From the IMG/VR virus record IMGVR_UViG_2526164628_000013: DNA of 13,370 nt. One strand, 5' to 3'. A model generated the notes under the pieces. It saw nothing but the letters and a program-made list of their open reading frames with translations. It searched no databases and had not been told where the DNA came from. The translations under genes were made by a program, and so were the position numbers. Below are positions 1 through 11,561 of this stretch, one piece after another. Source of the DNA: a virus. Its lineage: Duplodnaviria; Heunggongvirae; Uroviricota; Caudoviricetes. Position 1 is the first letter of the stretch. Each line of letters begins with the position of its first letter.

Positions 1-201
1 ATGCTGAACGATTTAGGCGTGGATCCGCATATTGTCGAACAACTCACCGCTCACCAGATGCCAGGGATGCAGCGAGTCTATAACCACTCCCGTTATCTCG
101 ATGCGAAACGTAATGCGCTGGACATGTGGACAGAGCGGTTAGAGATACTGGCGGGTACTCACAAAAACGTAACCACACTGCCAATAGCCAGAGAAATATA
201 A
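1..201 (+). CDS. int: Tyrosine integrase, C-terminal fragment (gene starts upstream of window)
   Basis: ORF 1..201 ends ...QRVYNHSRYLDAKRNALDMWTERLEIL, the pattern of a tyrosine recombinase C-terminus with the catalytic Tyr; followed by an AlpA-like gene as in P4/CP4-57-type islands. Partial, so family call is inference. Confidence 0.7.
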   Translation: MLNDLGVDPHIVEQLTAHQMPGMQRVYNHSRYLDAKRNALDMWTERLEILAGTHKNVTTLPIAREI

Positions 202-228
202 TTTTTTTTGCGATTTTTTAGAACTGAC

Positions 229-288
229 ACAACGTGAAACAACGAGACACCACGACGAACAACGGCGAACAATCTGGAACAAACTTGA
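229..288. repeat. Six tandem 10-bp A/C-rich repeats (ACAACGTGAA, ACAACGAGAC, ACCACGACGA, ACAACGGCGA, ACAATCTGGA, ACAAACTTGA)
   Basis: Read directly: ACAACG-like hexamer recurs at 229, 239, 249, 259, 269, 279, an exact 10-bp period, in the int-alpA intergenic region. Confidence 0.8.
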
Positions 289-433
289 TTAACATCTGAC
301 TGACACCCTAAAAAGTTGATTTTCAGTCGTTTTACTGGCTTTTTGTACATTGGCGAATCACTCTTAAAAACATGTAAAAAAGGCGTAAAAACAGAATTTT
401 ATGCCTTTGCACCACAATGAATTAAAAGAGTTT

Positions 434-462
434 TTATTCTCATTACCACACTTCTGTAAAAT
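434..462 (+). promoter_or_regulatory. Candidate sigma70-like promoter upstream of alpA (TTATTC -17 bp- TAAAAT)
   Basis: -35-like TTATTC at 434-439 and -10-like TAAAAT at 457-462 with a 17-bp spacer; motif match only. Confidence 0.2.
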
Positions 463-568
463 GACCGCCGCCAGTGTTTGCCATTCCATAAACACCCTGA
501 CACAATCCGACGCACCACAACACAATAGGACACCAAATAACTCTTTAAGAAATATCAAAGGGGGAATT

Positions 569-757
569 GTGTTAAGCACAGATCGCTTTATACGTGAAAA
601 AGAATGTCAGCAACTTACAGGCCTGAGCCGTTCATGTCGGTACCGCCTGGAAAAAACCGGACAATTCCCATCACGGCGTAAGCTCGGCGGTCGTTCCGTT
701 GGCTGGTCTTTATCCGAAGTTCTGGCATGGAAGGAAAGCTGCGAGGCAGTTCACTAA
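569..757 (+). CDS. alpA: AlpA-family phage regulatory protein (winged-helix, Xis-like)
   Basis: C-terminal part of ORF 401..757 reads ...LTGLSRSCRYRLEKTGQFPSRRKLGGRSVGWSLSEVLAWKE, matching the AlpA pattern. GTG at 569 is preceded by SD AAAGGGG (557-564); this gives ~62 aa, typical AlpA size. The longer 401 start is judged an artefactual extension. Confidence 0.75.
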   Translation: MLSTDRFIREKECQQLTGLSRSCRYRLEKTGQFPSRRKLGGRSVGWSLSEVLAWKESCEAVH

Positions 758-809
758 TCAGGCTGGCGGCACACCGCCGCCACCCATCCACTAATACAGA
801 GATCTAACC

Positions 810-2000
810 ATGAATACTGGATATTCTCCCGAACAAGGGCGGGGCTTCGTTCGTCCTGAAAAACAGAATCTGCAAAATTTTGCCGAAATTATTCCGGTTA
901 TTTCCGGCCTTACTGGCGGGAGTGAAACCAATATTGTTAACGCCAGAGCGTTGCAGATGTTTGATGATAAAAAGGGAGTAAATTTAACTTACACCCCTGA
1001 CGGCAATCAGAATATGAGCATTATCTCTGAGTCAGGTTTCTACAAACTAATAAAAACAAAAAGCGCCCCGTTCCCGGAGCGCCTTTGTGAACAATTAACC
1101 TACTGCGCAAAAAATGAATCTGAGCAGTGGGATTATATCAACCGTGTGGCGAAGCGCCACAATTGCCGGATAACAGGCAAAACAAAGGCCACCCGCTACG
1201 GTGGCCCCTCGACACAAGCTACACGTTATCCCCAACGCATGAGCATCACCAACAATGCCACATTTGCGGCTGGTGGGCAATGTGATCAGTCAGATTTGGT
1301 TCGTTCCAAGGTTTGCAACGAGAGCTTTTTCCTGTGCTCTTTAAGGAATTTCTCAAGAGCAAAAGCACATGGCGCGAATCTTTCTGATTCATGCTCTATC
1401 TTTCTGCGCCGTCTTTTCCGTGCCGGTGATAATGTTTTGGTCAATTCTTTATCGGTCATTGTGTTGTCCTGCATAGCAATGCGCCGTAATACCTTACACC
1501 ACGGCGCTGATGGTGATTACTCTGGTTCTTTGGTCTTGCGACGCTGGAGTTCTTCGCGTGCAACGGTGACAAGCTGCCCGATTTCTTCCGCTGCTTTGAT
1601 GCCGATTTGTTCGACCTTAGCCAGGGCATCCAGTGACGACACAAGGGGATTTTCTCCGCTGCCTTCTGCTTGGCGGCGGGCTATTTCTCCGCGCATGGCG
1701 GTTACGATAAATCCGGCATTGCTTTCGCCGTCCAGCTTAACGGATTCCATCCCTTGCATAACATCTAGTGGGACTCTGACAGTTGTCAGTTGTGATTTTG
1801 CGTTTTTGTTAGCCGTTGCCATTTCTGAAACTCCTAATCATCGGTGTGTTTCAGTATACACAAAAAAAGAAATACAAAAAGCCTTGACGTGTGTTTCATG
1901 CGCTCATAACATGAAACACACCAAAAGAATTGTTGAAATACAAAGAGCAACGCCCCGCAGTGCCGGAAACACATACGGGGCGTCTAACCACCAACGATAG
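810..2000 (+). CDS. Hypothetical ORF; only the first ~155 codons (810..~1280) look protein-like, the rest is an open frame antisense to minus-strand genes and an operator region
   Basis: 396-codon open frame. N-terminal part has balanced composition; from ~1280 the translation becomes S/L/R/C-rich, typical of antisense reading, and it overlaps the RHH-like gene (1517..1822) which has a strong SD. Weak SD at 810. Confidence 0.3.
   Translation: MNTGYSPEQGRGFVRPEKQNLQNFAEIIPVISGLTGGSETNIVNARALQMFDDKKGVNLTYTPDGNQNMSIISESGFYKLIKTKSAPFPERLCEQLTYCAKNESEQWDYINRVAKRHNCRITGKTKATRYGGPSTQATRYPQRMSITNNATFAAGGQCDQSDLVRSKVCNESFFLCSLRNFSRAKAHGANLSDSCSIFLRRLFRAGDNVLVNSLSVIVLSCIAMRRNTLHHGADGDYSGSLVLRRWSSSRATVTSCPISSAALMPICSTLARASSDDTRGFSPLPSAWRRAISPRMAVTINPALLSPSSLTDSIPCITSSGTLTVVSCDFAFLLAVAISETPNHRCVSVYTKKEIQKALTCVSCAHNMKHTKRIVEIQRATPRSAGNTYGASNHQR
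1286..1459 (-). CDS. Small basic hypothetical protein (MTDKELTKTLSPARKRRRRKIEHES...)
   Basis: Minus-strand ORF downstream of the RHH-like gene; internal ATG at 1459 has AGGA 7 nt upstream; K/R-rich. Could be spurious. Confidence 0.3.
   Translation of the reverse strand: MTDKELTKTLSPARKRRRRKIEHESERFAPCAFALEKFLKEHRKKLSLQTLERTKSD
1517..1822 (-). CDS. Putative small DNA-binding regulator (possibly ribbon-helix-helix), divergent from the rightward operon
   Basis: 101-aa ORF with protein-like composition; ATG at 1822 preceded on the minus strand by AGGAG with 8-nt spacer; its upstream region carries the palindromic operator at 1889-1921. Fold assignment is inference. Confidence 0.6.
   Translation of the reverse strand: MATANKNAKSQLTTVRVPLDVMQGMESVKLDGESNAGFIVTAMRGEIARRQAEGSGENPLVSSLDALAKVEQIGIKAAEEIGQLVTVAREELQRRKTKEPE
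1884..1921 (+). promoter_or_regulatory. Rightward promoter (TTGACG -17- TAACAT) overlapped by a perfect 12-bp inverted repeat operator
   Basis: TTGACG 1884-1889, TAACAT 1907-1912. GTGTGTTTCATG (1889-1900) and CATGAAACACAC (1910-1921) are exact reverse complements with a 9-bp spacer; a third half-site GTGTGTTTCA lies at 1844-1853. Confidence 0.5.
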
Positions 2001-2019
2001 CAAGATTATCGAGGCTGCT

Positions 2020-2226
2020 ATGAGAAATCATACCATACACCCGCAAGGGCGGGACTCGCACAACCTGAATAAATACATCTGGCGTTTTATCGCCCTGAGT
2101 ACGGCACAACCGCGCGTGATTACCATTGAGGCCACCAGCGAACAGGAAGCCCGTCAGCAATCACCGGCTGGCTGCGTGATGGTATTCGCCGCCCGTATTC
2201 GTCAGGGGGTGCACCATGTGCAATAA
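2020..2226 (+). CDS. Small hypothetical protein, first gene of the rightward operon (weak resemblance to Icd/Ash-like proteins of P4-type islands, unverified)
   Basis: ATG 2020 preceded by GAGG (2011-2014); MRNHTIHPQGRDSHNLNKYIWRFIALSTAQPRVITIEATSEQEARQQSPAGCVMVFAARI... Family call from memory only. Confidence 0.45.
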   Translation: MRNHTIHPQGRDSHNLNKYIWRFIALSTAQPRVITIEATSEQEARQQSPAGCVMVFAARIRQGVHHVQ

Positions 2227-2476
2227 CACCCGTCCGGACGCAGCCGCCGAAGCAATCAAAACACTGATTGATGCGCTGATTGATATTTCTGTTATCGCGG
2301 ACAGGGCGCATAAGCACGCTACCAGTGAAACAGAATATGCCGGGGCTTTCGTTCCTCATTCGCTGGCGGTTATGCAACTTAGTGCGGATATGGCGCTGAA
2401 TGAGGCCAAAGCCATCCTGATTGCTGATTGTGAAAATGGGGGGGGGTTATGCGTGATGATCGTTTTAATTCCCTGA
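2216..2476 (+). CDS. Hypothetical small protein
   Basis: ATG 2216 with AGGGGG SD 6 nt upstream; start overlaps the preceding stop; ends across the G9 tract. Confidence 0.4.
   Translation: MCNNTRPDAAAEAIKTLIDALIDISVIADRAHKHATSETEYAGAFVPHSLAVMQLSADMALNEAKAILIADCENGGGLCVMIVLIP
2438..2446. repeat. G9 homopolymer tract at the junction of two overlapping ORFs
   Basis: Nine consecutive G read directly at 2438-2446; encodes GGG in ORF 2216..2476 and sits 2 nt upstream of ATG 2449. Confidence 0.9.
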
Positions 2477-2682
2477 AACAGGAATTTTCCGGCGTTCCTG
2501 ATGATGCGGCTGATGCGCTTTCGTCAATGCCAGAGCTTATTAGAGCGGCTTTTTTCTTACTTTCCACGAGAGAATATAAATCAACGGGGCTTGATGTACT
2601 GAATATCGCCGCCGATTATGCGGAATATGTGGCAGAGGCGCGTTACAGAAGAAAATTTCCTGAGGATGTAAGCCATGCGTGA
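2449..2682 (+). CDS. Hypothetical small protein
   Basis: ATG 2449 immediately downstream of the G-rich tract (SD-like); overlaps neighbours at both ends. Confidence 0.4.
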   Translation: MRDDRFNSLKQEFSGVPDDAADALSSMPELIRAAFFLLSTREYKSTGLDVLNIAADYAEYVAEARYRRKFPEDVSHA

Positions 2683-2908
2683 TATTTACCACGAAACAAT
2701 AGACCGCGCATTTCTTGCACTTTCTCACAGTGAAAACATGCTGGAAATATTGCGCATATGGCTTGAAACACTTGGCGACAATGAACGCGACAAACAAAAA
2801 TCAAGAATTGCCACGGCATTAATAACGCTTCTTGAGCCTGTAATAATGGAACTGCAAGAAATAGATCTATTGCACGACAGATATAAAGAACAGCACACCG
2901 GAGAATAA
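2675..2908 (+). CDS. Hypothetical small protein (predicted helical)
   Basis: ATG 2675 overlaps the previous stop; GAGGA 8 nt upstream. Confidence 0.4.
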   Translation: MRDIYHETIDRAFLALSHSENMLEILRIWLETLGDNERDKQKSRIATALITLLEPVIMELQEIDLLHDRYKEQHTGE

Positions 2909-2913
2909 AAATA

Positions 2914-3213
2914 ATGAAACTTAAATATTCTGGCTTAACTGCCAGTGGCAACACTCACCCTAAATTTACGCGCGGTGATATTTACCGCGACCAGTACGGC
3001 GGCACGGTAATGATTAAGGGCGTGGAAGAACGGCGCGTAATCTACCGCCGTGAAGGTTACGAATATGATTGCGTGATGCCTGTTTATCAGTTCCGGTGTG
3101 ATTTTTCTCTGGTACAGACCGCGCCGCATAACGTGCCCACCAGCAACGCCAGGGCACGGGCAAACATCCAGAAGCTGAAAACCATGATTAACGGATTCAG
3201 GGGCAAGAAATGA
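2914..3213 (+). CDS. Hypothetical small protein immediately upstream of and overlapping the replication helicase gene
   Basis: ATG 2914; stop overlaps ATG 3210 of the next gene (ATGA-type coupling). Confidence 0.45.
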   Translation: MKLKYSGLTASGNTHPKFTRGDIYRDQYGGTVMIKGVEERRVIYRREGYEYDCVMPVYQFRCDFSLVQTAPHNVPTSNARARANIQKLKTMINGFRGKK

Positions 3214-4625
3214 AAAGCGCACCGAACTTAAAAAAACAGCCTTACGACAAAATGACCGAAGTCATTATTTTTGCGGGTAGTGATGCCTGGGCGCACGCGA
3301 AACAATGGCAGGAGCAGGACGGGCGACTTGCTGGCGACAATGTTCCGCCTGTATGGCTGGGAGACAGCCAGCTTGACGAACTGGCAGGCCTGAAAATTAT
3401 CGACGATGGTCGCTATTGTGTCCGACTGTACAAGGCAGGCCACATCAAGCCGTCAAATATTAATGCCATCGGGCAAAAGCTGGCGGCGGCAGGTGTACGG
3501 GATGCGAATTATTACCCTGAGGGAATGCACAGTCAGAAGCTGGAGAACTGGCACGACTACCTGCAACGGATCCGCGAACAGGCAGAGCGCGGGGAAATAC
3601 TTACTGACGAGCAATACAGCCAGCGAAAAACCACGCTACCAATGAGCATTGGATCTGCAGGGTACGACACACAGCTTGATTATGTCGTTAAGGGCGTGAT
3701 TCCGGCTAATTCATTGTGCAGCACATACGGCGCGAGCGGTTCCTATAAATCGTTCCTCGCGTGTTCCTGGGCGTGTCATGTTGCCACGGGTCGCCACTGG
3801 GGAGGTCGCAGGGTGGCGCATGGTTCGGTGATGTATGTTGTCGGTGAAGGTGGCATTGGTGTCCCCCGCCGTATCAAGGCATGGGAAATCGTTAATGATG
3901 AACGGGTGAAAAATCTGTACCTGGTAAACCGCCCGATTTTTCCTGCAGCCCAGTTTGATGTTGATGAAATGGTTATCGCATCCCGCCAGGTTGAACGGGA
4001 AACGGGTAAACCGGTACGCATGATTATTCTGGATACGCTGGCGCGTTGCTTTGGCGGTAATGATGAAAATGACGCGCGGGATATGGGGGCGTTTATCCGT
4101 GGATGTGACGAACTGAAACGACGCACAGGGGCCACGGTGCTGGTGGTTCACCATTCCGGCAAGGATGAAACAAAAGGGGCGCGTGGTTCCAGTGCATTTC
4201 GTGCATCTCTGGACGCTGAGTACCGGATCCGCCGCGAAGGCGCGGACAGTGAGGCCCTGGTTATCTCCTGCACCAAAATGAAGGACGCGGAGGAACTGAA
4301 AGAGGCTGCATATGATTTACGTGTGGTGGAGCTTTTTACCGACGCTGACAAGGAGTTAATCACGTCGCTGGTGGTTGTGGATAAGCCGCGCCCACCCGTT
4401 GAACTGGAGCGCATCGAGGAGGCCGGAAACAAGACGGAGAATCACGCCGCACTATGGGGCTGTATCCGGTCACGCACACAGCGCGGCGATAAATGCACTA
4501 TCCCGTTGTTGCGCGATGATATGAAAAAGCTGGGGTATGAGATGAAAAACTTCCGGCGCTGGCTGTACAAGCTGGAAAGAGACGGCGTTATCGCTATTGA
4601 CGGTGATGATGTGCGCCCACTGTAA
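3210..4625 (+). CDS. Replication protein: RepA/DnaB-like P-loop helicase (satellite/PICI pri-rep-like) with C-terminal winged-helix-like tail
   Basis: 471 aa. Walker A-like YGASGSYKS, RecA-fold signatures MIILDTLARCFGG and VLVVHHSGKD; basic C-terminal ~60 aa plausibly DNA-binding. Iteron array begins at its stop codon. Confidence 0.75.
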   Translation: MKSAPNLKKQPYDKMTEVIIFAGSDAWAHAKQWQEQDGRLAGDNVPPVWLGDSQLDELAGLKIIDDGRYCVRLYKAGHIKPSNINAIGQKLAAAGVRDANYYPEGMHSQKLENWHDYLQRIREQAERGEILTDEQYSQRKTTLPMSIGSAGYDTQLDYVVKGVIPANSLCSTYGASGSYKSFLACSWACHVATGRHWGGRRVAHGSVMYVVGEGGIGVPRRIKAWEIVNDERVKNLYLVNRPIFPAAQFDVDEMVIASRQVERETGKPVRMIILDTLARCFGGNDENDARDMGAFIRGCDELKRRTGATVLVVHHSGKDETKGARGSSAFRASLDAEYRIRREGADSEALVISCTKMKDAEELKEAAYDLRVVELFTDADKELITSLVVVDKPRPPVELERIEEAGNKTENHAALWGCIRSRTQRGDKCTIPLLRDDMKKLGYEMKNFRRWLYKLERDGVIAIDGDDVRPL

Positions 4626-4826
4626 AAAGTGAGGCGCAAAAGTGAGGGGATAGCAGGAACTGAACAAAAAGCAACCGCGCCCCTCACTTTTCAATCTGTA
4701 TATAGGCTCAAAAGTGAGGAATAAAAAACACATTGAAAAACAACATATTAGAATCACAAAAAAACAAGGTTGGAAATCATGTGGGGAGCTTAAAAAGTGA
4801 GGCGAAAAAGTGGGGAGTAGTGGGGA
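4625..4826. repeat. Iteron array, putative replication origin: AAAAGTGAGG direct repeats plus one inverted copy and an AT-rich stretch
   Basis: AAAAGTGAGG at 4625, 4638, 4710, 4793; variant AAAAGTGGGG at 4806; inverted copy CCTCACTTTT at 4682-4691; AT-rich 4720-4770. Lies directly after the helicase gene. Confidence 0.6.
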
Positions 4827-5078
4827 ATGACCAGAAAAAGCAGAGATAAAACAGCACCAAAATATCGCGCATTAGACATGACAGAGCACGCCTTAAAGGT
4901 GGCAATCAGAACGATAGACCGCCACGCCGGAGAAGGATACGCGAAAGCGCATCCCGAACTGATAAGCGCATTCATGACCACGGCGGCGGCAAATTTTGCC
5001 ACACTGACAGAACGGGAGATTGCCGAAGCGGAACAGGTGACAACCATCAACGTTAAAACCGGAGAGCAGACAGCATGA
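4827..5078 (+). CDS. Hypothetical protein between ori and ssb
   Basis: 83-aa ORF; stop overlaps ATG of the SSB-like gene (ATGA at 5075-5078). Confidence 0.45.
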   Translation: MTRKSRDKTAPKYRALDMTEHALKVAIRTIDRHAGEGYAKAHPELISAFMTTAAANFATLTEREIAEAEQVTTINVKTGEQTA

Positions 5079-5497
5079 CAGCACAGATAGCGGCTTACGG
5101 GCGGCTGGTGGCTGACCCGCAGTTAAAGACCACCAGCAAGGGTACACAAATGACGATGGCGAGTATGGCGGTCCCACTTCCGTGCAGCCAGGCAGATGAC
5201 GGAACGGCGACGATGTGGTTATCCGTCCTGGCGTTTGGCAGACAGGCCGAAGCACTGGCAAAGCACCGCAAGGGTGAACTCCTGAGCGTGGCGGGTAACA
5301 TGCAGGTAAGCCAGTGGACAGGCCAGAACGGCGAAACGCGGCGGGGCTGGCAGGTTATCGCAGACAGCGTAATCAGTGCGCGAACGGCGCGACCGGGCGG
5401 CAAAAAAGGTCAGCAGGGGCAGGCCACTGACGCACTGAACAGGGCAAAACAACAGTCGGGGAATGATGATCCGTACGGCGATAATATACCGTTTTAA
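5075..5497 (+). CDS. ssb: Single-stranded DNA-binding protein-like (OB fold with acidic ...DDPYGDNIPF tail)
   Basis: 140 aa. N-terminal ~100 aa align by eye to E. coli SSB OB-fold segments (GRLVADPQL..., WLSVLAFGRQAEALAKHRKGELLSVAGNMQVSQWTGQNGETR...). C-terminus ends DNIPF, like the SSB DDDIPF tail. Confidence 0.65.
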   Translation: MTAQIAAYGRLVADPQLKTTSKGTQMTMASMAVPLPCSQADDGTATMWLSVLAFGRQAEALAKHRKGELLSVAGNMQVSQWTGQNGETRRGWQVIADSVISARTARPGGKKGQQGQATDALNRAKQQSGNDDPYGDNIPF

Positions 5498-5514
5498 ATT
5501 CTGCAAACAAAAAG

Positions 5515-5543
5515 ATGCCGGAAAAAAATAGATTTTCCGGCAT
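5515..5543. terminator. Perfect 11-bp stem hairpin (ATGCCGGAAAA / TTTTCCGGCAT, 7-nt loop) between replication and capsid modules
   Basis: Read directly. A U-tract follows the stem only on the minus-strand transcript; on the + strand an A-tract precedes it. Orientation ambiguous. Confidence 0.4.
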
Positions 5544-5714
5544 GCTACATAAATCCCGACCAAAGGAAGTAAATACATTAACACGAATTATCAGCACTGA
5601 AGTTGTCACGGCATATTTTATACAACATTGCACTTGGTTGCATGTATTCGCATAGCAGACATCGGTAATAGAATATATTCACAATTATTTGTAATGAATG
5701 TAAAGAGGATGAGT

Positions 5715-6755
5715 ATGGTTGATTTATATTCGCCTACACAGCTTGTGCAGGTGGCTAATGCTGAAGATGTGCAAAAAAAATTAAATGCGTTGTTTACCAG
5801 TTTGTTTTTCACTCGCTCGGTAATGTTTGAATCGAGAGACATTATTCTTGATACGATCGACGATCCAAATATCCCGATCGCGGCGTTTTGCTCTCCTATG
5901 GTGGGCAGTAAAGTTTCACGAGATGAGGGATACGAATCAAAAACAATTCGCCCTGGCTATATGAAACCGAAAAGCAGCATTGATCCAAATAAGTTAGCTG
6001 TGCGCCCTGCTGGTGTATCACCTGAACAATACAATGCTTTTGGGGCGCGTAATATTAAAGTTAAACAGGCGATTGTAAATCAGGCTAAAGCTATACGTGC
6101 ACGTATTGAATGGCTTGCTGTTCAGGCAATCACAACGGGGAAAAATATCATTGAGGGCGATGGTATTGAACGTTATGAACTGGACTGGAATATAAAACCA
6201 CAAAATATTATCACGCAGTCTGGCGGTGCTGAGTGGTCAGGTAAGGATAAAGAAACTTTTGATCCAAATGATGATATTGAGAGCTACGCAGAATTTAGTG
6301 AGGGCGTCACTAATATCATCATTATGGGCGGTAATGTATGGAAGAAATACCGTTCATTCAGAGCGATAAAAGAGGCTCTGGATACCCGCCGTGGTTCTAA
6401 TTCCGAACTGGAAACGGCCCTTAAAGACCTTGGTGATTCGGTGAGTTTTAAAGGGTATATGGGCGATGTTGCGATTGTTGTTTACAGCGGACGTTATACC
6501 GACGAGGACGGAACTGAAAAACATTTCCTTGATCCTGATTTGATGGTGCTTGGCAATACGGCTCTTCAGGGGATTGTCGCCTATGGCGGTATTCAGGATC
6601 CGGAGCTAACCCGAATGGGGCTGACTAAAGCCGAACTTGCACCGAAAAACTATATTGTGCCTGGTGATCCGGCTATTGAGTACGTACAAACGCACTCTGC
6701 ACCACAGCCAATACCGGCCCGCATCAATCGTTTTGTTACCGTTCGCATTGGCTAA
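5715..6755 (+). CDS. Major capsid protein, phage lambda gpE family
   Basis: Internal ATG 5715 with SD AAAGAGG (5702-5708). Long blocks match lambda gpE as recalled (NIITQSGGAEWSGKDKETFDPNDDIESYA..., AIKEALDTRRGSNSELETALKDLG..., YMGDVAIVVYSG..., MVLGNTA). About 346 aa. Confidence 0.85.
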   Translation: MVDLYSPTQLVQVANAEDVQKKLNALFTSLFFTRSVMFESRDIILDTIDDPNIPIAAFCSPMVGSKVSRDEGYESKTIRPGYMKPKSSIDPNKLAVRPAGVSPEQYNAFGARNIKVKQAIVNQAKAIRARIEWLAVQAITTGKNIIEGDGIERYELDWNIKPQNIITQSGGAEWSGKDKETFDPNDDIESYAEFSEGVTNIIIMGGNVWKKYRSFRAIKEALDTRRGSNSELETALKDLGDSVSFKGYMGDVAIVVYSGRYTDEDGTEKHFLDPDLMVLGNTALQGIVAYGGIQDPELTRMGLTKAELAPKNYIVPGDPAIEYVQTHSAPQPIPARINRFVTVRIG

Positions 6756-6764
6756 GGGGGAGCA

Positions 6765-6958
6765 ATGGCTACTCATTACACTGAACTCATGTCTGGCACT
6801 GAAGCACTGGTTACTACGCTGGGGATATTTTCAGCCAATAAAGGGGTAATACCTGCGTTTACGCCACTGATGCAGGAAGATGCAACTGGTGCGCTAGTGG
6901 TATGGGATGGAACGAGCGCAGGCAAAGCGGTTTATGTTTCCGCTGTACAAATCGACAC
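6765..6958 (+). pseudogene. Head decoration protein (lambda gpD-like), 3'-truncated by IS629
   Basis: SD AAGGGGGA then ATG 6765. ...AFTPLMQEDATGALVVWDGTSAGKAVYVSAVQ... resembles the lambda gpD core. Reading frame runs into the IS629 left end at 6959 after ~64 native codons (gpD is ~110 aa). Confidence 0.6.
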
Positions 6959-7012
6959 TGAACCGCCCCGGGAATCCTGGAGACTAAACTCCCTGAGAAA
7001 GAGGTAAACAGG

Positions 7013-7339
7013 ATGACTAAAAATACTCGTTTTTCCCCCGAAGTCCGTCAGAGGGCGATTCGTATGGTTCTGGAAAGTCAGGGCGAATATGACTCACAGT
7101 GGGCGGCAATTTGTTCCATTGCCCCAAAGATTGACTGTACACCGGAGACTCTGCGTGTCTGGGTACGCCAGCATGAGCGGGATACCGGAGGCGGTGATGG
7201 CGGGCTCACCACCGCTGAACGTCAGCGTCTGAAAGAGCTGGAACGTGAAAATCGTGAACTGCGCCGCAGTAACGATATCCTTCGCCAGGCTTCCGCTTAT
7301 TTTGCGAAGGCGGAGTTCGACCGCCTCTGGAAAAAGTGA
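7013..7339 (+). CDS. IS629 OrfA (transposase N-terminal/HTH component)
   Basis: [30 protein letters not shown]...[18 protein letters not shown], 108 aa. Confidence 0.85.
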
Positions 7340-8226
7340 TGCCACTGCTGGATAAGCTGCGTAAGCTGTACGGGGTCGGACCGGTATGCAGTGAACTACA
7401 TATTGCCCCGTCAACGTATTACCACTGTCAGCAACAGCGACATCATCCTGATAAACGCAGTGCCCGTGCGCAGCGCGATGACTGGCTGAAGAAAGAGATA
7501 CTGCGCGTATACGATGGGAATCATCAGGTATACGGTGTGCGTAAAGTCTGGCGTCAGTTGTTACGGGAAGGAATCAGGGTAGCCAGATGTACAGTGGCGC
7601 GCCTCATGGCGGTTATGGGACTTGCCGGTGTTCTCCGGGGTAAAAAGGTCCGCACTACCGTCAGCCGGAAAGCCGTTGCCGCAGGCGACCGCGTAAACCG
7701 TCAGTTTGTGGCAGAACGTCCTGACCAGTTGTGGGTGGCTGATTTTACTTACGTCAGCACATGGCAGGGGGTCGTCTATGTGGCGTTCATCATTGATGTG
7801 TTTGCCGGATACATCGTGGGGTGGCGGGTCTCATCGTCTATGGAAACGACATTCGTGCTGGATGCTCTGGAGCAGGCGTTATGGGCCCGTCGACCGTCCG
7901 GCACAGTCCATCACAGTGATAAAGGTTCTCAGTATGTATCGCTGGCCTACACACAGCGGCTTAAGGAAGCCGGATTACTGGCATCAACAGGAAGTACTGG
8001 TGACTCGTATGACAACGCGATGGCGGAGAGCATCAATGGCCTTTACAAAGCGGAGGTAATACACCGTAAGAGCTGGAAAAACCGGACAGAAGTGGAACTG
8101 GCCACACTCACGTGGGTGGACTGGTATAACAATCGACGATTGCTGGAAAGGCTGGGCCATATCCCACCGGCAGAAGCAGAAAAAGCTTATTATGCTTCCA
8201 TCGGAAACGATGATCTGGCAGCCTGA
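7336..8226 (+). CDS. IS629 OrfB (transposase catalytic component; -1 frame relative to orfA)
   Basis: 296 aa with rve-type integrase core (…[14 protein letters not shown]…[10 protein letters not shown]…[10 protein letters not shown]…); overlaps orfA end, typical of IS3-family frameshift organisation. Confidence 0.85.
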
Positions 8227-8280
8227 GTTCACAGATAAAACACTCTCCAGGAAACCCGGGGCGGTTCACAAAGTGTTTTT

Positions 8281-9831
8281 TCATCGCACACCGCCTTTTT
8301 CCTGATGAAAGCGGCAACGAGCAATCACGGATTGAATTTCAAATTGTGTGGTTTCATGGATTGAAATAAGTGGATTGCGGGCGTTACCAACACTGTCTGA
8401 AATGGAAATCAATTCATCGACTTCTTTAACTACACTCTCCAGCACCGCCTGATGGTCACCATCAGTAAAGGGGCGGAAATACAGGCAACCGTAGCAGCAG
8501 CGTACTTCACTGAATGGGCATTTGCCATCATCTCTGGAGCAACCGCCAATCCCATCATGCAACTCATCACCGATTATGCCGACCACGCGCTGGTCTTGCC
8601 ATTTCGTTGAAGAGGTCAGTTCACCAGTCAACATCATAGCCACCATGTTTTGCCATACCGGATTGATACCCAATGCTTTGGCTCGAATCAGTGCCAGTGC
8701 AGGCGTCGCCAGAATGTAATACTTGGCAACAGTAAGGGAGCTATGTCCCAGAATATGCGCAATTTCCTCGGCGCTGACCCCTTGCATAGCCAGTGAATGC
8801 CCCACGTTGTGGCGCAAGTCGGTCGGGGTAATGGTTGGCAAAGCCGCTTCGCCACGCTTTACGGCTGCCTGATAATCTGGCGGACTGAAACAGAGGAAGG
8901 CCTTGTTAATCGCTCTGGACACATTAAACGGTGCAGAGTTACTAAATTCAAATAGCTTGCCATCAGGTTTTAGTTGCGCTCGCTCGATATAGTGCCTAAT
9001 CAACGCGCCGATTTCAGCTGGAATCGCCAAAAACAGACGTTCAGTCGTTACGTGCCGCTGTTTGGCGTAAGGAAGGAGTAAGCTATATCGTATTAATCCG
9101 GTTTCGGAGTTTCGGGTATCAATACGTAAATCTTTTACCGCCAGCTTGGCCAGTTGTACCGGTCGGGCACCGGTGACATACGTCAGTCCCAGAATTACTG
9201 CATCTCGCATGGTGTTCAGACTGTAGTTTTCGCCATACCGAATCGCCACAGCCATTTCAAACAAGCCTTTACTGATCATGTTTTTTTCGAGGGGATCCAG
9301 AACATGATCAATTTCCTGATAGATTCCCCAGTCATGGGAGTGCGGGCGAGGGATGAATTCGAGGTCTTCATAATCTTCGAGGGTAAAACCAGGGAATGCT
9401 TCGGTACAGAGGATTTTTAGGCCGAAAATGATAAAGTAGAAATATTGAGGTTTAATTTCCTGAGTTTCGAGGTAATCTTTCAACACCGTAAAAGTGAAAG
9501 CAGATTTGCTTATGCAATGATCAGTTGCCAAAGACCACGCATGGAGTACCCCAGGAACCTGAGCTGGACACTTGGCAGATGCATAATGGAAGCAAATATA
9601 TTTGATTAATTGGTTGCTGATTTTATCCTGACGAAAGTGGGCATAGCAGCGGCTTCCTGAATAATCGAATACCCAACTGTCACTTGTTGAGCTGATATAT
9701 TTGTCATCAAAATGATCTGCCGATTTAAGATAAATACTAACTGGTATATTAACCTTTAAAATACTCTCAACAAATACAGGTGTGTAAATGTTGCTGTTCG
9801 ACGCATTTAACTGTTTATTGATTCGACTCAT
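8281..9831 (-). CDS. Large tyrosine recombinase (~516 aa) with extended N-terminal domain and ~135-aa C-terminal extension carrying a Cys cluster
   Basis: Box I-like LGLTYVTGARPVQLAKL, box II-like TDLRHNVGH and LGHSSLTVAKYY (catalytic Tyr). Start at ATG 9831 (GGAG 5 nt upstream); in-frame ATGs also at 9846 and 9855. Stop lies 12 bp from the IS629 right end. Confidence 0.7.
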   Translation of the reverse strand: MSRINKQLNASNSNIYTPVFVESILKVNIPVSIYLKSADHFDDKYISSTSDSWVFDYSGSRCYAHFRQDKISNQLIKYICFHYASAKCPAQVPGVLHAWSLATDHCISKSAFTFTVLKDYLETQEIKPQYFYFIIFGLKILCTEAFPGFTLEDYEDLEFIPRPHSHDWGIYQEIDHVLDPLEKNMISKGLFEMAVAIRYGENYSLNTMRDAVILGLTYVTGARPVQLAKLAVKDLRIDTRNSETGLIRYSLLLPYAKQRHVTTERLFLAIPAEIGALIRHYIERAQLKPDGKLFEFSNSAPFNVSRAINKAFLCFSPPDYQAAVKRGEAALPTITPTDLRHNVGHSLAMQGVSAEEIAHILGHSSLTVAKYYILATPALALIRAKALGINPVWQNMVAMMLTGELTSSTKWQDQRVVGIIGDELHDGIGGCSRDDGKCPFSEVRCCYGCLYFRPFTDGDHQAVLESVVKEVDELISISDSVGNARNPLISIHETTQFEIQSVIARCRFHQEKGGVR

Positions 9832-10237
9832 ATGCACTCCATTCATCGCATACATGGGAAAAGGTTGATTTCAGGGCTTCGTTATCAATCACAATTCGCT
9901 GAAGATTGGCCGTATTAGCCTGCTGAGATAGAAATCTTTTAGCGTAAAGATCAGGCATATGGCTATTGTGACTCCAACCGCCAAGTAGCCGTAATTCATC
10001 CTTGGCTTCATCCATCAATCCAACGATAGAAAAGTCTATGGCTGCCAAGTGTGAGTTGGCCTTAATTTTTTGAAGTTTATCACGATAAATACGTTGAAGT
10101 GTTAAATAAGCCCAAGTATGCCGCGTTATATGAGGCGAGATGCTTTCAATGGCATCATAATATTCATCTTTTTTATATTCAGGATACTGCACACTCATAA
10201 TGTCATCAATACGGGTAAAGATATCATAGACTGCATG

Positions 10238-10242: not shown

Positions 10243-10333
10243 TAGACTGGCCCCCTGAATCTCCAGACAACCAATATCACTTAAATAAGTGATAGTCTTA
10301 ATACTAGTTTTTAGACTAGTCATTGGAGAGCAG

Positions 10334-10663
10334 ATGATTGATGTCTTAGGACCGGAGAAACGCAGACGGCGTACTACACAGGAAAAGATCGCTATTGTTC
10401 AGCAGAGTTTTGAACCGGGAATGACGGTCTCCCTTGTTGCCCGGCAACACGGTGTGGCAGCCAGCCAGTTATTTCTCTGGCGCAAGCAATACCAGGAGGG
10501 AAGTCTTACTGCTGTGGCCGCAGGAGAGCAGGTCGTTCCTGCCTCTGAACTTGCTGCTGCCATGAAGCAGATTAAAGAACTCCAGCGCCTGCTCGGCAAA
10601 AAACGATGGAAAATGAACTCCTTAAAGAAGCCGTTGAATACGGGCGTGCAAAAAAGTGGATAG
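10334..10663 (+). CDS. insC: IS2 OrfA (InsC), apparently frameshifted in this copy
   Basis: [18 protein letters not shown]...LQRLLGKK matches InsC, then the frame diverges (…[19 protein letters not shown]) while the expected InsC C-terminus [31 protein letters not shown] is encoded in the +1 frame from 10603. A-run at 10598-10603 is 6 A. Confidence 0.75.
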
Positions 10664-11561
10664 CGCACGCGCCCTTATTGCCCGGGGATGGGGAGTAAGC
10701 TTAGTCAGCCGTTGTCTCCGGGTGTCGCGTGCGCAGTTGCACGTAATTCTCAGACGAACCGATGACTGGAAAGATGGTCGCCGCAGCCGTCACTCAGATG
10801 ATACGGATGTGCTTCTCCGTATACACCATGTTATCGGAGAGCTGCCCACGTATGGTTATCGTCGGGTATGGGCGCTGCTTCGCAGACAGGCCGAACTTGA
10901 TGGTATGCCTGCGATCAATGCCAAACGTGTTTACCGGATCATGCGCCAGAATGCGCTGTTGCTTGAGCGAAAAACCGCTGTACCGCCATCGAAACGGGCA
11001 CATACTGGCAAAGTGGCCGTGAAAGAAAGCAATCAACGATGGTGCTCTGACGGGTTCGAGTTCCGCTGTGATAACGGAGAAAAACTGCGAGTCACGTTCG
11101 CGCTGGACTGCTGTGACCGTGAGGCACTGCACTGGGCAGTCACTACGGGCGGCTTCGACAGTGAAACAGTACAGGACGTAATGCTGGGAGCGGTGGAACG
11201 CCGCTTCGGCAACGAGCTTCCGGCGTCTCCAGTAGAGTGGCTGACGGATAATGGTTCATGCTACCGGGCTAATGAAACACGGCAGTTTGCCCGGATGTTG
11301 GGGCTTGAACCGAAGAACACGGCGGTGCGGAGTCCGGAGAGTAACGGCATAGCAGAGAGCTTCGTGAAAACGATAAAGCGTGACTACATCAGTATCATGC
11401 CTAAACCAGACGGGTTAACGGCAGCAAAGAACCTTGCAGAGGCGTTCGAGCATTATAACGAATGGCATCCGCATAGTGCACTGGGTTATCGCTCGCCACG
11501 GGAATATCTGCGGCAGCAGGCCAGTAATGGGTTAAGTGATAACAGGTGTCTGGAAATATAG
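10656..11561 (+). CDS. insD: IS2 OrfB (InsD transposase catalytic component)
   Basis: 301 aa, [34 protein letters not shown]... matches InsD as recalled; GTG start just after the A6G slippery motif (10650-10656). Confidence 0.85.

Follow-up and report, generated by a model that had tools for sequence, protein, structure and literature searches.

The DNA analysed here, a stretch of 13,370 nucleotides from the IMG/VR virus record IMGVR_UViG_2526164628_000013 that we refer to in its entirety as the window, carries a phage-satellite island of Escherichia coli of the phage-inducible chromosomal island (PICI) type, and inside the early/replication operon of this island lies a run of nine guanines at the junction of two small genes. 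A first-pass annotation made from the letters alone had remarked on nine consecutive G at the meeting point of two overlapping open reading frames (ORFs), and this description is borne out: the window reads ...GTGAAAAT GGGGGGGGG TTATGCGTGATGA... (across the run also written ...GATTGTGAAAAT-GGGGGGGGG-TTATGCGTGATGATCG...), the nine G occupy exactly positions 2438-2446, and the frames concerned are 2216..2476 (ORF1, or gene A) and 2449..2682 (ORF2, or gene B), the latter in the -1 frame relative to the former. In the G9 state the 86-residue product of ORF1 has the C-terminus ...GGGLCVMIVLIP*, its last 10 residues (LCVMIVLIP plus the stop) coming from an out-of-frame reading of the stretch in which ORF2 begins. 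A TGA at 2454-2456 is read through in this frame, and the two ORFs overlap by 28 nt, as against 8 nt in a junction of the ATGCGTGA type.

By composition alone the run is moderately unusual for 13 kb, that is, only mildly unlikely: a stretch of eight G is expected 0.25 times per window when both strands are counted, and two overlapping G8 matches, the equivalent of one G9, were reached in 7 of 200 dinucleotide shuffles. It is the only run of at least six G or C in positions 1-7000 of the window, where all others of such length consist of A or T. We regard it as more than a chance occurrence because of the comparative data described below, not because of its composition. Promoter and terminator scans gave no signal at the run. 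A minus-strand ORF that crosses it (2379-2567, 62 aa) was dismissed, as we found no support for it.

Rebuilding the region in silico with other run lengths produces three configurations of the two ORFs. G10 and G7 join them into single fusions of 155 aa (...CENGGGVMRDDRF...) and 154 aa, respectively; G8 and G11 end ORF1 after 79 and 80 aa with ...GGG(G)YA*; and G9 and G12 end it after 86 and 87 aa with ...LCVMIVLIP*. It had been suggested from the sequence that one added G would fuse the ORFs and that the loss of one would shorten the first, and both forms exist in nature: G10 and G7 alleles, some of them with identical flanks, are annotated as proteins of 154-155 aa, and the 79-aa product is found on contigs. 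Tract length, when compared across related islands, takes the values G4 and G7 to G12, with interrupted forms besides, and differs as a slippage-prone site predicts. The first five islands compared had G7, G7, G9, G10 and G11. One 154-aa coding sequence (CDS) is annotated in each of the two G7 islands (O157 FDAARGOS_293 and strain 20.1), one 155-aa CDS in the G10 island of TUM9757, and two CDS with an 8-nt overlap in the G11 island of TW10590.

A pattern scan with exact flanks yielded 129 contigs, 80 from IMG/VR and 49 from metagenomes. Pure runs of G7 (29 contigs), G8 (56), G9 (25), G10 (5) and G11 (2) make up most of them, and the other 12 have interrupted runs (GGGGGTGG in 3, GGGGTGGG in 2, GGGGTTGG in 1, G8TGG in 2, G4AG7 in 3 and G10AG in 1). 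Sorted by frame, 34 of the 129 (26%) are fused, 66, the commonest class, have the ATGCGTGA overlap, and 29 are of the window's type, so that split states account for 95. None of the 12 interrupted, presumably stable alleles is in the fused frame. Among complete genomes, taken as an evenly spaced, proportional sample of the E. coli BLAST ranking, we found G4, G7, G8, G9 and G11, and whether RefSeq shows one CDS or two follows the frame. The short G4 allele is in the fused frame; at the locus in question (L137, about 735-750) the fusion extends into a 410-aa CDS annotated as Icd-like. The Prokaryotic Genome Annotation Pipeline (PGAP) labels the G9 allele of CEA106S a 'frameshifted' pseudogene and treats G8, G9 and G11 alleles elsewhere as two CDS, its calls (loci L139, L140 and L001-L004) varying with run length and with the reference protein that was matched. 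Because the same locus may be annotated as one gene, two genes or a pseudogene, gene counts of these islands are not comparable between genomes.

The length of the run changes rapidly. Nine groups of at least two loci share 460-bp flanks that are 100% identical, and run length differs within five of them; the window's own group has G9, G9, G10 and G11. Over positions 1-6958 there is not a single substitution between the window and TW10590, their sole difference being G9 versus G11, and run length here changes faster than any base across the surrounding 7 kb is substituted. An exact-sequence look-up of the products of the window's haplotype found the 154-aa form (G7) on 15 contigs, the 79-aa form (G8) on 78, the 86-aa form (G9) on 163, the 155-aa form (G10) on 4 and the 80-aa form (G11) on 2. 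The G12 product of this haplotype was absent from the same look-up, and the exact ORF2 protein occurs on at least 1000 contigs. This variation is not general homopolymer noise: control runs of A7, A8 and T8 in the same contigs are almost invariant; the A7 at 3230-3236, for instance, has the same length in 36 of 36 loci. Within clones, the short runs look stable: G7 is uniform among the O157 rows, the O26 rows have G7 apart from a single G8, and NCTC86 has G8 in two separate assemblies. The pattern agrees with the rule that the rate of slippage climbs steeply with run length. The run, its three ORF configurations and its length polymorphism among near-identical islands can be read directly from the sequences compared.

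The interpretation that we favour, and in which we have reasonable but by no means complete confidence, is that the window carries a natural G9 allele of a hypermutable poly-G run, a hotspot of replication slippage situated in a glycine linker and ribosome-binding site (RBS), and that all three frames are tolerated. A and B would be two small, translationally coupled genes with the run at their boundary, where it would double as two to four glycine codons at the C-terminal end of A and as a G-rich RBS for B. Slipped-strand mispairing during DNA replication would alter the length of the run and in doing so shift the end of gene A among three frames. In the first of these (G7/G10), A and B would be joined through a Gly-Gly(-Gly)-Val linker into a protein of 154-155 aa; in the second and commonest (G8/G11), the TGA of A would overlap the ATG of B (ATGCGTGA); and in the third (G9/G12), that of the window, A would be read 25 nt past the ATG of B and would gain a 10-residue hydrophobic tail. 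Because B would keep its own start and RBS, both modules should still be producible in all frames, and the three states would be tolerated alternatives among which the run is free to drift. We infer replication slippage as the cause, a role of the run in initiation at ORF2 and near-neutrality of the states, and we consider the polymorphism more likely to be tolerated than to serve as an on/off switch.

A role of the G run as the RBS of ORF2 is predicted from its pairing with the 3' end of 16S rRNA. The predicted duplex is -11.1 kcal/mol for every length from G7 to G11 (a G-U pair included). None of the eight gene starts tested gave a stronger one, and among the 20-mers of the window the value falls below the 1st percentile. 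In ORF2 of the EC5 type, AGGGGGGT with its G6 run stands ahead of the same ATG and has a predicted duplex of -11.5 kcal/mol. The ATG itself is at the expected position in 85 of 85 loci, and ORF2 is intact (73-77 aa) in nearly all, while in the fused proteins the run encodes a Gly-Gly(-Gly)-Val-Met linker. The ratio of nonsynonymous to synonymous polymorphism (pN/pS) is 0.30-0.37 per half (about 0.35) in the fused, overlap and window-type groups, and secondary lesions in either half are almost absent; both halves are intact and under purifying selection in all states. Diversity at third codon positions is 0.05-0.27 within ~40 nt of the run versus 0.4-0.65 farther away (127 loci), a dip for which constraint on the nucleotides, recombination where the modules meet, or simple linkage to the exactly matched flanks by which the loci were collected could account. 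As for the products, neither half had a match in Pfam, NCBIfam or PADLOC or in a profile search of the PDB, PHROGs placed both only in families of unknown function, and the literature yielded no paper on the run or on these proteins. An AlphaFold2 model built from a 21-sequence alignment is all-helical and of low confidence (pLDDT 51, pTM 0.35), with two helical modules and a low-confidence segment at residues 75-101, of which the first ~6 (75-80) make up a non-helical gap across the run (linker at about 74-80).

The first reading of the sequence had implied that the fusion is the 'real' gene, and this is probably the wrong way round, the split states being commonest and the distant homologues mostly two genes. 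A full-library HMMER search returned only 53 clusters at 50% identity. Most of the more distant homologues, at 38-50% identity, consist of the N-half by itself, 73-93 aa long and with no poly-Gly; two of them, P0140 and P0156, have ...HA at the C-terminus. The C-half likewise exists by itself, in proteins of 75-77 aa whose first residue aligns to the Met right after the run, and distant fusions are few (P0126 and P0170). PHROGs holds one family for each half plus one for the fusion. Fused proteins are diverse (77-99% identity) and always have GG or GGG. The junction in the distant lineages is known from proteins alone, and DNA of distant two-gene relatives was found neither among viral contigs by way of P0168 and P0149 nor among species-representative genomes by way of P0156 and P0061. 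Because these distant homologues are separate genes and ATGCGTGA recurs at the ORF2/ORF3 junction, two genes with an 8-nt start/stop overlap are the usual junction design of the operon, and this arrangement corresponds to the commonest allele, G8. The two-gene arrangement of G8 and G11 was probably the original one, and the fusion, judging from the alleles compared, is a viable and frequent derivative.

The two halves are also shuffled as independent modules at the G-rich junction (L135-L138). In EC5 and CFSAN061761, ORF2 stands behind an unrelated 121-aa gene with the junction AGGGGGGTAAACATGCGTGA (L135/L136, about 680-710), the ATGCGTGA motif being found in EC5-type islands as well, and in Z1323CEC0004 an unrelated 72-aa gene comes after an ORF1 that has G8 (L138, about 735-765). 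The idea that G-rich RBS runs at gene junctions cause fusions is supported by a parallel case one gene upstream, at the locus L043, where G4 in place of the G5 at 2205-2209 fuses the Icd-like gene to ORF1; G5 is found in 10 of 11 loci.

Several considerations weigh against a run that merely drifts among equivalent states. The contig counts are phylogenetically non-independent, and the exact-flank pattern favours alleles with a G run in the sample. The lengths were taken from public assemblies, in which some of the calls may be errors, and switching within a strain is presumed. The proposed RBS is predicted from the energy of a duplex that contains a G-U pair, spacing aside. Equal pN/pS is no proof that each state is functional, because switching is fast relative to substitutions. 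The states could be unequal, in that ribosomes translating ORF1 in the G9 state would cross the start of ORF2 and could lower the expression of B. Finally, the fused form is clearly viable too, and selection may favour it in some lineages; there is a fixed fused allele, G4.

Of the alternatives, the one that survives best is that the poly-G run is an adaptive contingency locus, a switch, stochastic and reversible, that yields either a fused A-B or the two proteins apart (or alters the dosage of B) and whose states differ in satellite induction, replication or helper-phage interference, the run itself being selected for its mutability. We think this unlikely, though it has real attractions. Most alleles retain a pure G run although the flanking modules have diverged by ~20% at the protein level, the run is the only long G/C run of the island, all three frames are common, and the change among identical flanks is rapid. 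Hypermutable polyG tracts have a precedent in mobile elements, namely the Campylobacter phages as cited in PMC11868660, and the dip in synonymous diversity near the junction would fit as well, although it is perhaps an ascertainment effect of the exact-flank pattern. Phase variation had been among the roles first proposed for the tract, and the proposal holds to the extent that length polymorphism sets the frame. A simple ON/OFF scheme does not fit the data: in all states ORF2 retains a start codon of its own and a strong predicted RBS, only 26% of contigs are fused and the distant homologues are mostly two genes. With the start of B present in every state, nothing is obviously off, and A and B had no match in Pfam, NCBIfam, PADLOC or PDB. 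The interrupted, stable alleles and the G4 allele imply that mutability is dispensable, G7 is stable throughout the O157 lineage, and an RBS and linker role combined with tolerance of frameshifts accounts just as well for a run that persists. That a widespread E. coli satellite family uses the run as a selected reversible switch, toggling between fused and separate forms or tuning B so as to make subpopulations, seems improbable to us; it would be a repeat-based contingency locus in E. coli, and in a satellite, of which we found no report.

We see still less reason to attribute G9 to an error of homopolymer sequencing or assembly with a true length of G8 or G10, another suggestion of the first-pass annotation. 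Homopolymers are the classic error site of 454, Ion Torrent, PacBio and Nanopore data, and the run is the sole difference from TW10590 in about 7 kb. Yet because the exact 86-aa product is the commonest allele of its haplotype (the 163 contigs come from several sources), a private sequencing error is unlikely; many of the 25 G9 contigs in the scan are short-read SPAdes metagenome assemblies, four related complete genomes have G9 in common, and other runs of 7-8 nt are stable in the same contigs. Ordinary gene decay, on which view the function would reside in a fused gene of 154-155 aa and G9 would have inactivated it by a frameshift as the island degenerates, has an equally slim chance of being right. 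The window's island is indeed truncated by an IS3-family element, with the end of the head-decoration gene, a helix-turn-helix (HTH) gene and terS missing, and PGAP applies its 'frameshifted' label to the G9 allele of CEA106S. The split states, however, are in the majority and occur also in complete-looking islands such as that of TW10590, secondary lesions are almost absent with pN/pS the same across states, and the distant homologues are mostly two genes. The last and least probable possibility is programmed recoding, by slippage of RNA polymerase (also raised from the sequence alone) or by -1 frameshifting on G GGG GGG, to yield the fusion from a G9 template in addition to the separate products: ORF2 does lie in the -1 frame, the G10 product is just what a -1 shift within the run would yield, and G GGG GGG in the ORF1 frame formally fits X XXY YYZ, but within-run transcription insertions in E. 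coli are 100% in A/T runs and G/C runs, its authors conclude, are not slippage-prone (PMC5574713), no downstream stimulatory structure is predicted (fold of 2425-2540 against shuffles, z = 0.17), a programmed site would hold a fixed frame relation where three frames are common here, and it is the window's IS3 copy in which a conserved frameshift pseudoknot is present (Rfam ALIL, 116 bits).

The operon that contains the run lies on the plus strand and is tightly overlapping, with the order Icd-like gene, ORF1, ORF2, ORF3, DUF4222 gene and RepA-family helicase (Table 1). On its 5' side are the C-terminus of an integrase (1-201), AlpA and, on the minus strand, a YlcI/YnfO gene; on its 3' side are a small ORF, the single-stranded DNA-binding protein (SSB), the major capsid protein (E) and a head-decoration gene. 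A PICI-type satellite is recognised by an integrase, an AlpA regulator, a replication gene of its own and some packaging or capsid genes, in about 10-15 kb that lack a full set of phage genes. The features of this kind found in the window are the integrase, AlpA, RepA helicase, SSB and capsid E, together with a truncated head-decoration gene; in TW10590 the island copy also includes the HTH gene and terS, and its end is at smrA. Of 5426 complete E. coli genomes, 976 (~18%) have a match to the 91 bases surrounding the run, among them the Shiga-toxin lineages O157, O26, O111 and O145. A tblastn search of the fused protein against 50,697 deposited phage genomes gave no match.

Table 1. Coordinates of the G run, the genes that it joins and the other features of the operon in the window.
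Feature	Position	Strand	Remarks
G9 homopolymer	2438..2446	+	Read as Gly-Gly-Gly near the 3' end of ORF1; the ORF2 start codon follows after 2 nt
ORF1 (gene A, N-half module)	2216..2476	+	86 aa with G9; matches to PHROG 5146 and to PHROG 2512 (N-half)
ORF2 (gene B, C-half module)	2449..2682	+	77 aa, own ATG; matches PHROG 24341 and the C-half of PHROG 2512
ATGCGTGA motif	2449..2456	+	ORF2 ATG overlapped by TGA 2454-2456, the ORF1 stop in G8/G11 alleles
TGA stop of ORF1 in the G9/G12 frame	2474..2476	+	25 nt past the ORF2 ATG
Icd-like gene, first of the operon	2020..2226	+	NCBIfam NF033153, 1.4e-19; same annotation in relatives
G5 run, Shine-Dalgarno-like, before the ATG of ORF1 (2216), where the Icd-like gene and ORF1 meet	2205..2209	+	Predicted anti-Shine-Dalgarno duplex -10.7 kcal/mol
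ORF3, 77-aa hypothetical protein	2675..2908	+	PHROG 2196; annotated in relatives
ATGCGTGA start/stop overlap at the ORF2/ORF3 junction	2675..2682	+	Window sequence
DUF4222 gene	2914..3213	+	Pfam PF13973, 2e-24
RepA-family helicase (AAA_25), island replication gene	3210..4625	+	Pfam PF13481, 3e-44; RepA-family helicase in the TW10590 annotation
Promoter-like site 5' of the Icd-like gene, possible operon promoter (weak evidence)	1884..1912	+	Consensus scan only, 9/12 positions

Beyond the operon, the IS3-family element that begins at ~6959 cuts the head-decoration gene of the window, and the HTH gene and terS of TW10590 are absent. Because the rest of the head-decoration gene and these two genes are missing, the window's copy of the satellite is probably not mobilisable. 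The junction between island and IS3 element is in no complete E. coli genome of the collection. The element spans 6959-8230, with orfA at 7013-7339, orfB at 7336-8226 and its pseudoknot at 7294-7410, and the interrupted head-decoration gene is 6765-7007 (80 aa), with only a partial match to Pfam HDPD. Farther along, 8281-9855 (-) is a tyrosine-recombinase-like gene of 524 aa with a Phage_integrase domain (2.6e-10), and 10289-11561 (+) is a second IS3-family transposase (rve, rve_3, HTH_21). As these lie beyond the first IS3 element, the right half of the window is a different patchwork of mobile elements. Upstream of the operon, a 396-aa open frame at 810-2000 (+) overlaps the YlcI/YnfO gene (1517-1822, -); it is unannotated in TW10590, and the matching region is annotated as 'incomplete' pseudogene fragments in O157 and strain 20.1. 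This frame is probably a remnant or a spurious ORF. Lesions were seen in other copies of the island: an internal stop in the RepA helicase of strain 20.1 (L002 4202-5602), a frameshifted DUF4222 gene in EC5 (L136 1132-1421) and a frameshifted ORF2 homologue in CFSAN061761 (L135 701-921). We take these lesions to mean that some copies of the island family are decaying.

The polymorphism of the run explains why the locus has been annotated inconsistently as one protein, two proteins or a 'frameshifted' pseudogene, and it cautions against reading a split pair of genes as sequencing error or decay. The natural series of fused and split alleles also offers a starting point for finding the function of a two-protein module that sits beside the replication genes of a satellite. 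More broadly, the locus lets one ask whether localized hypermutation is something that satellites exploit. Hypermutation by repeat length is not usually associated with E. coli. The E. coli examples of phase variation in a review of the subject work through inversion (fim) or Dam methylation (pap) and not through repeats (PMC11868660).

Placed among known systems, the locus resembles several and coincides with none of them entirely. The closest relatives by sequence feature are the contingency loci made of simple sequence repeats (SSRs), in which poly-G or poly-C tracts underlie phase variation in Neisseria, Haemophilus, Campylobacter, Helicobacter and Bordetella (PMC11868660, PMC1891110). As in these, a coding G run of at least seven varies in length among near-identical strains and sets the frame, presumably by slipped-strand mispairing. 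Unlike in these, both ORFs are translatable in every frame and there is no clear OFF state, and, where SSR loci typically concern surface or restriction-modification genes, the products here are small, cytoplasmic-looking helical proteins of a satellite. Membership in this class seems partial: the repeat is long enough and length-polymorphic, its length alters the ORF architecture (fused or split), and ORF2 has its own ATG and a predicted RBS in all states. In Campylobacter jejuni, a polyG tract joins cj0031 and cj0032 into one restriction-modification enzyme, and here too a single run at an ORF junction decides between two ORFs and one. In cases of that type, however, the split form is usually non-functional, whereas here no state is commoner, the ancestral arrangement was probably split, and start and stop overlap in the canonical way.

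Phages of Campylobacter, in which polyG tracts are said to act on receptor-binding proteins, provide a second comparison. Their tracts reportedly create phenotypic diversity and help to evade bacterial resistance, as the title of a 2021 study by Sorensen and colleagues has it. The tracts are like the present one in that a mobile viral element carries the polyG; they create diversity in the population, and the run described here differs from them in lying in the early/replication operon of a satellite. The phage tracts are described by Sorensen et al. 2021, Cell Rep 35:109214, as cited in PMC11868660.

Programmed -1 frameshifting and transcriptional slippage, for which IS3 orfA-orfB, dnaX and lambda G/GT serve as comparators (Baranov et al. 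2005, PMC1088944), share with the locus two overlapping frames, a possible fusion product and a homopolymeric 'slippery' stretch at the overlap. The likeness ends there, as the run is of G and not of A or T, no stimulator lies downstream and the frame relation is not conserved. Transcriptional slippage goes with an A/T run of about 9 or more and with conserved length and frame, and the run shows neither. The remaining comparison is with the translationally coupled genes of phage operons (ATGA/ATGnnTGA). The ATGCGTGA overlap of the G8 and G11 alleles is identical to the ORF2/ORF3 junction, a predicted G-rich Shine-Dalgarno sequence lies within the upstream gene, as is usual for such pairs, and in the window the stop of ORF1 is 25 nt past the ATG of ORF2. 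What sets the locus apart from usual coupled genes is that the Shine-Dalgarno sequence would have expanded into a long homopolymer that doubles as glycine codons, an expansion that would make the junction mutationally unstable.

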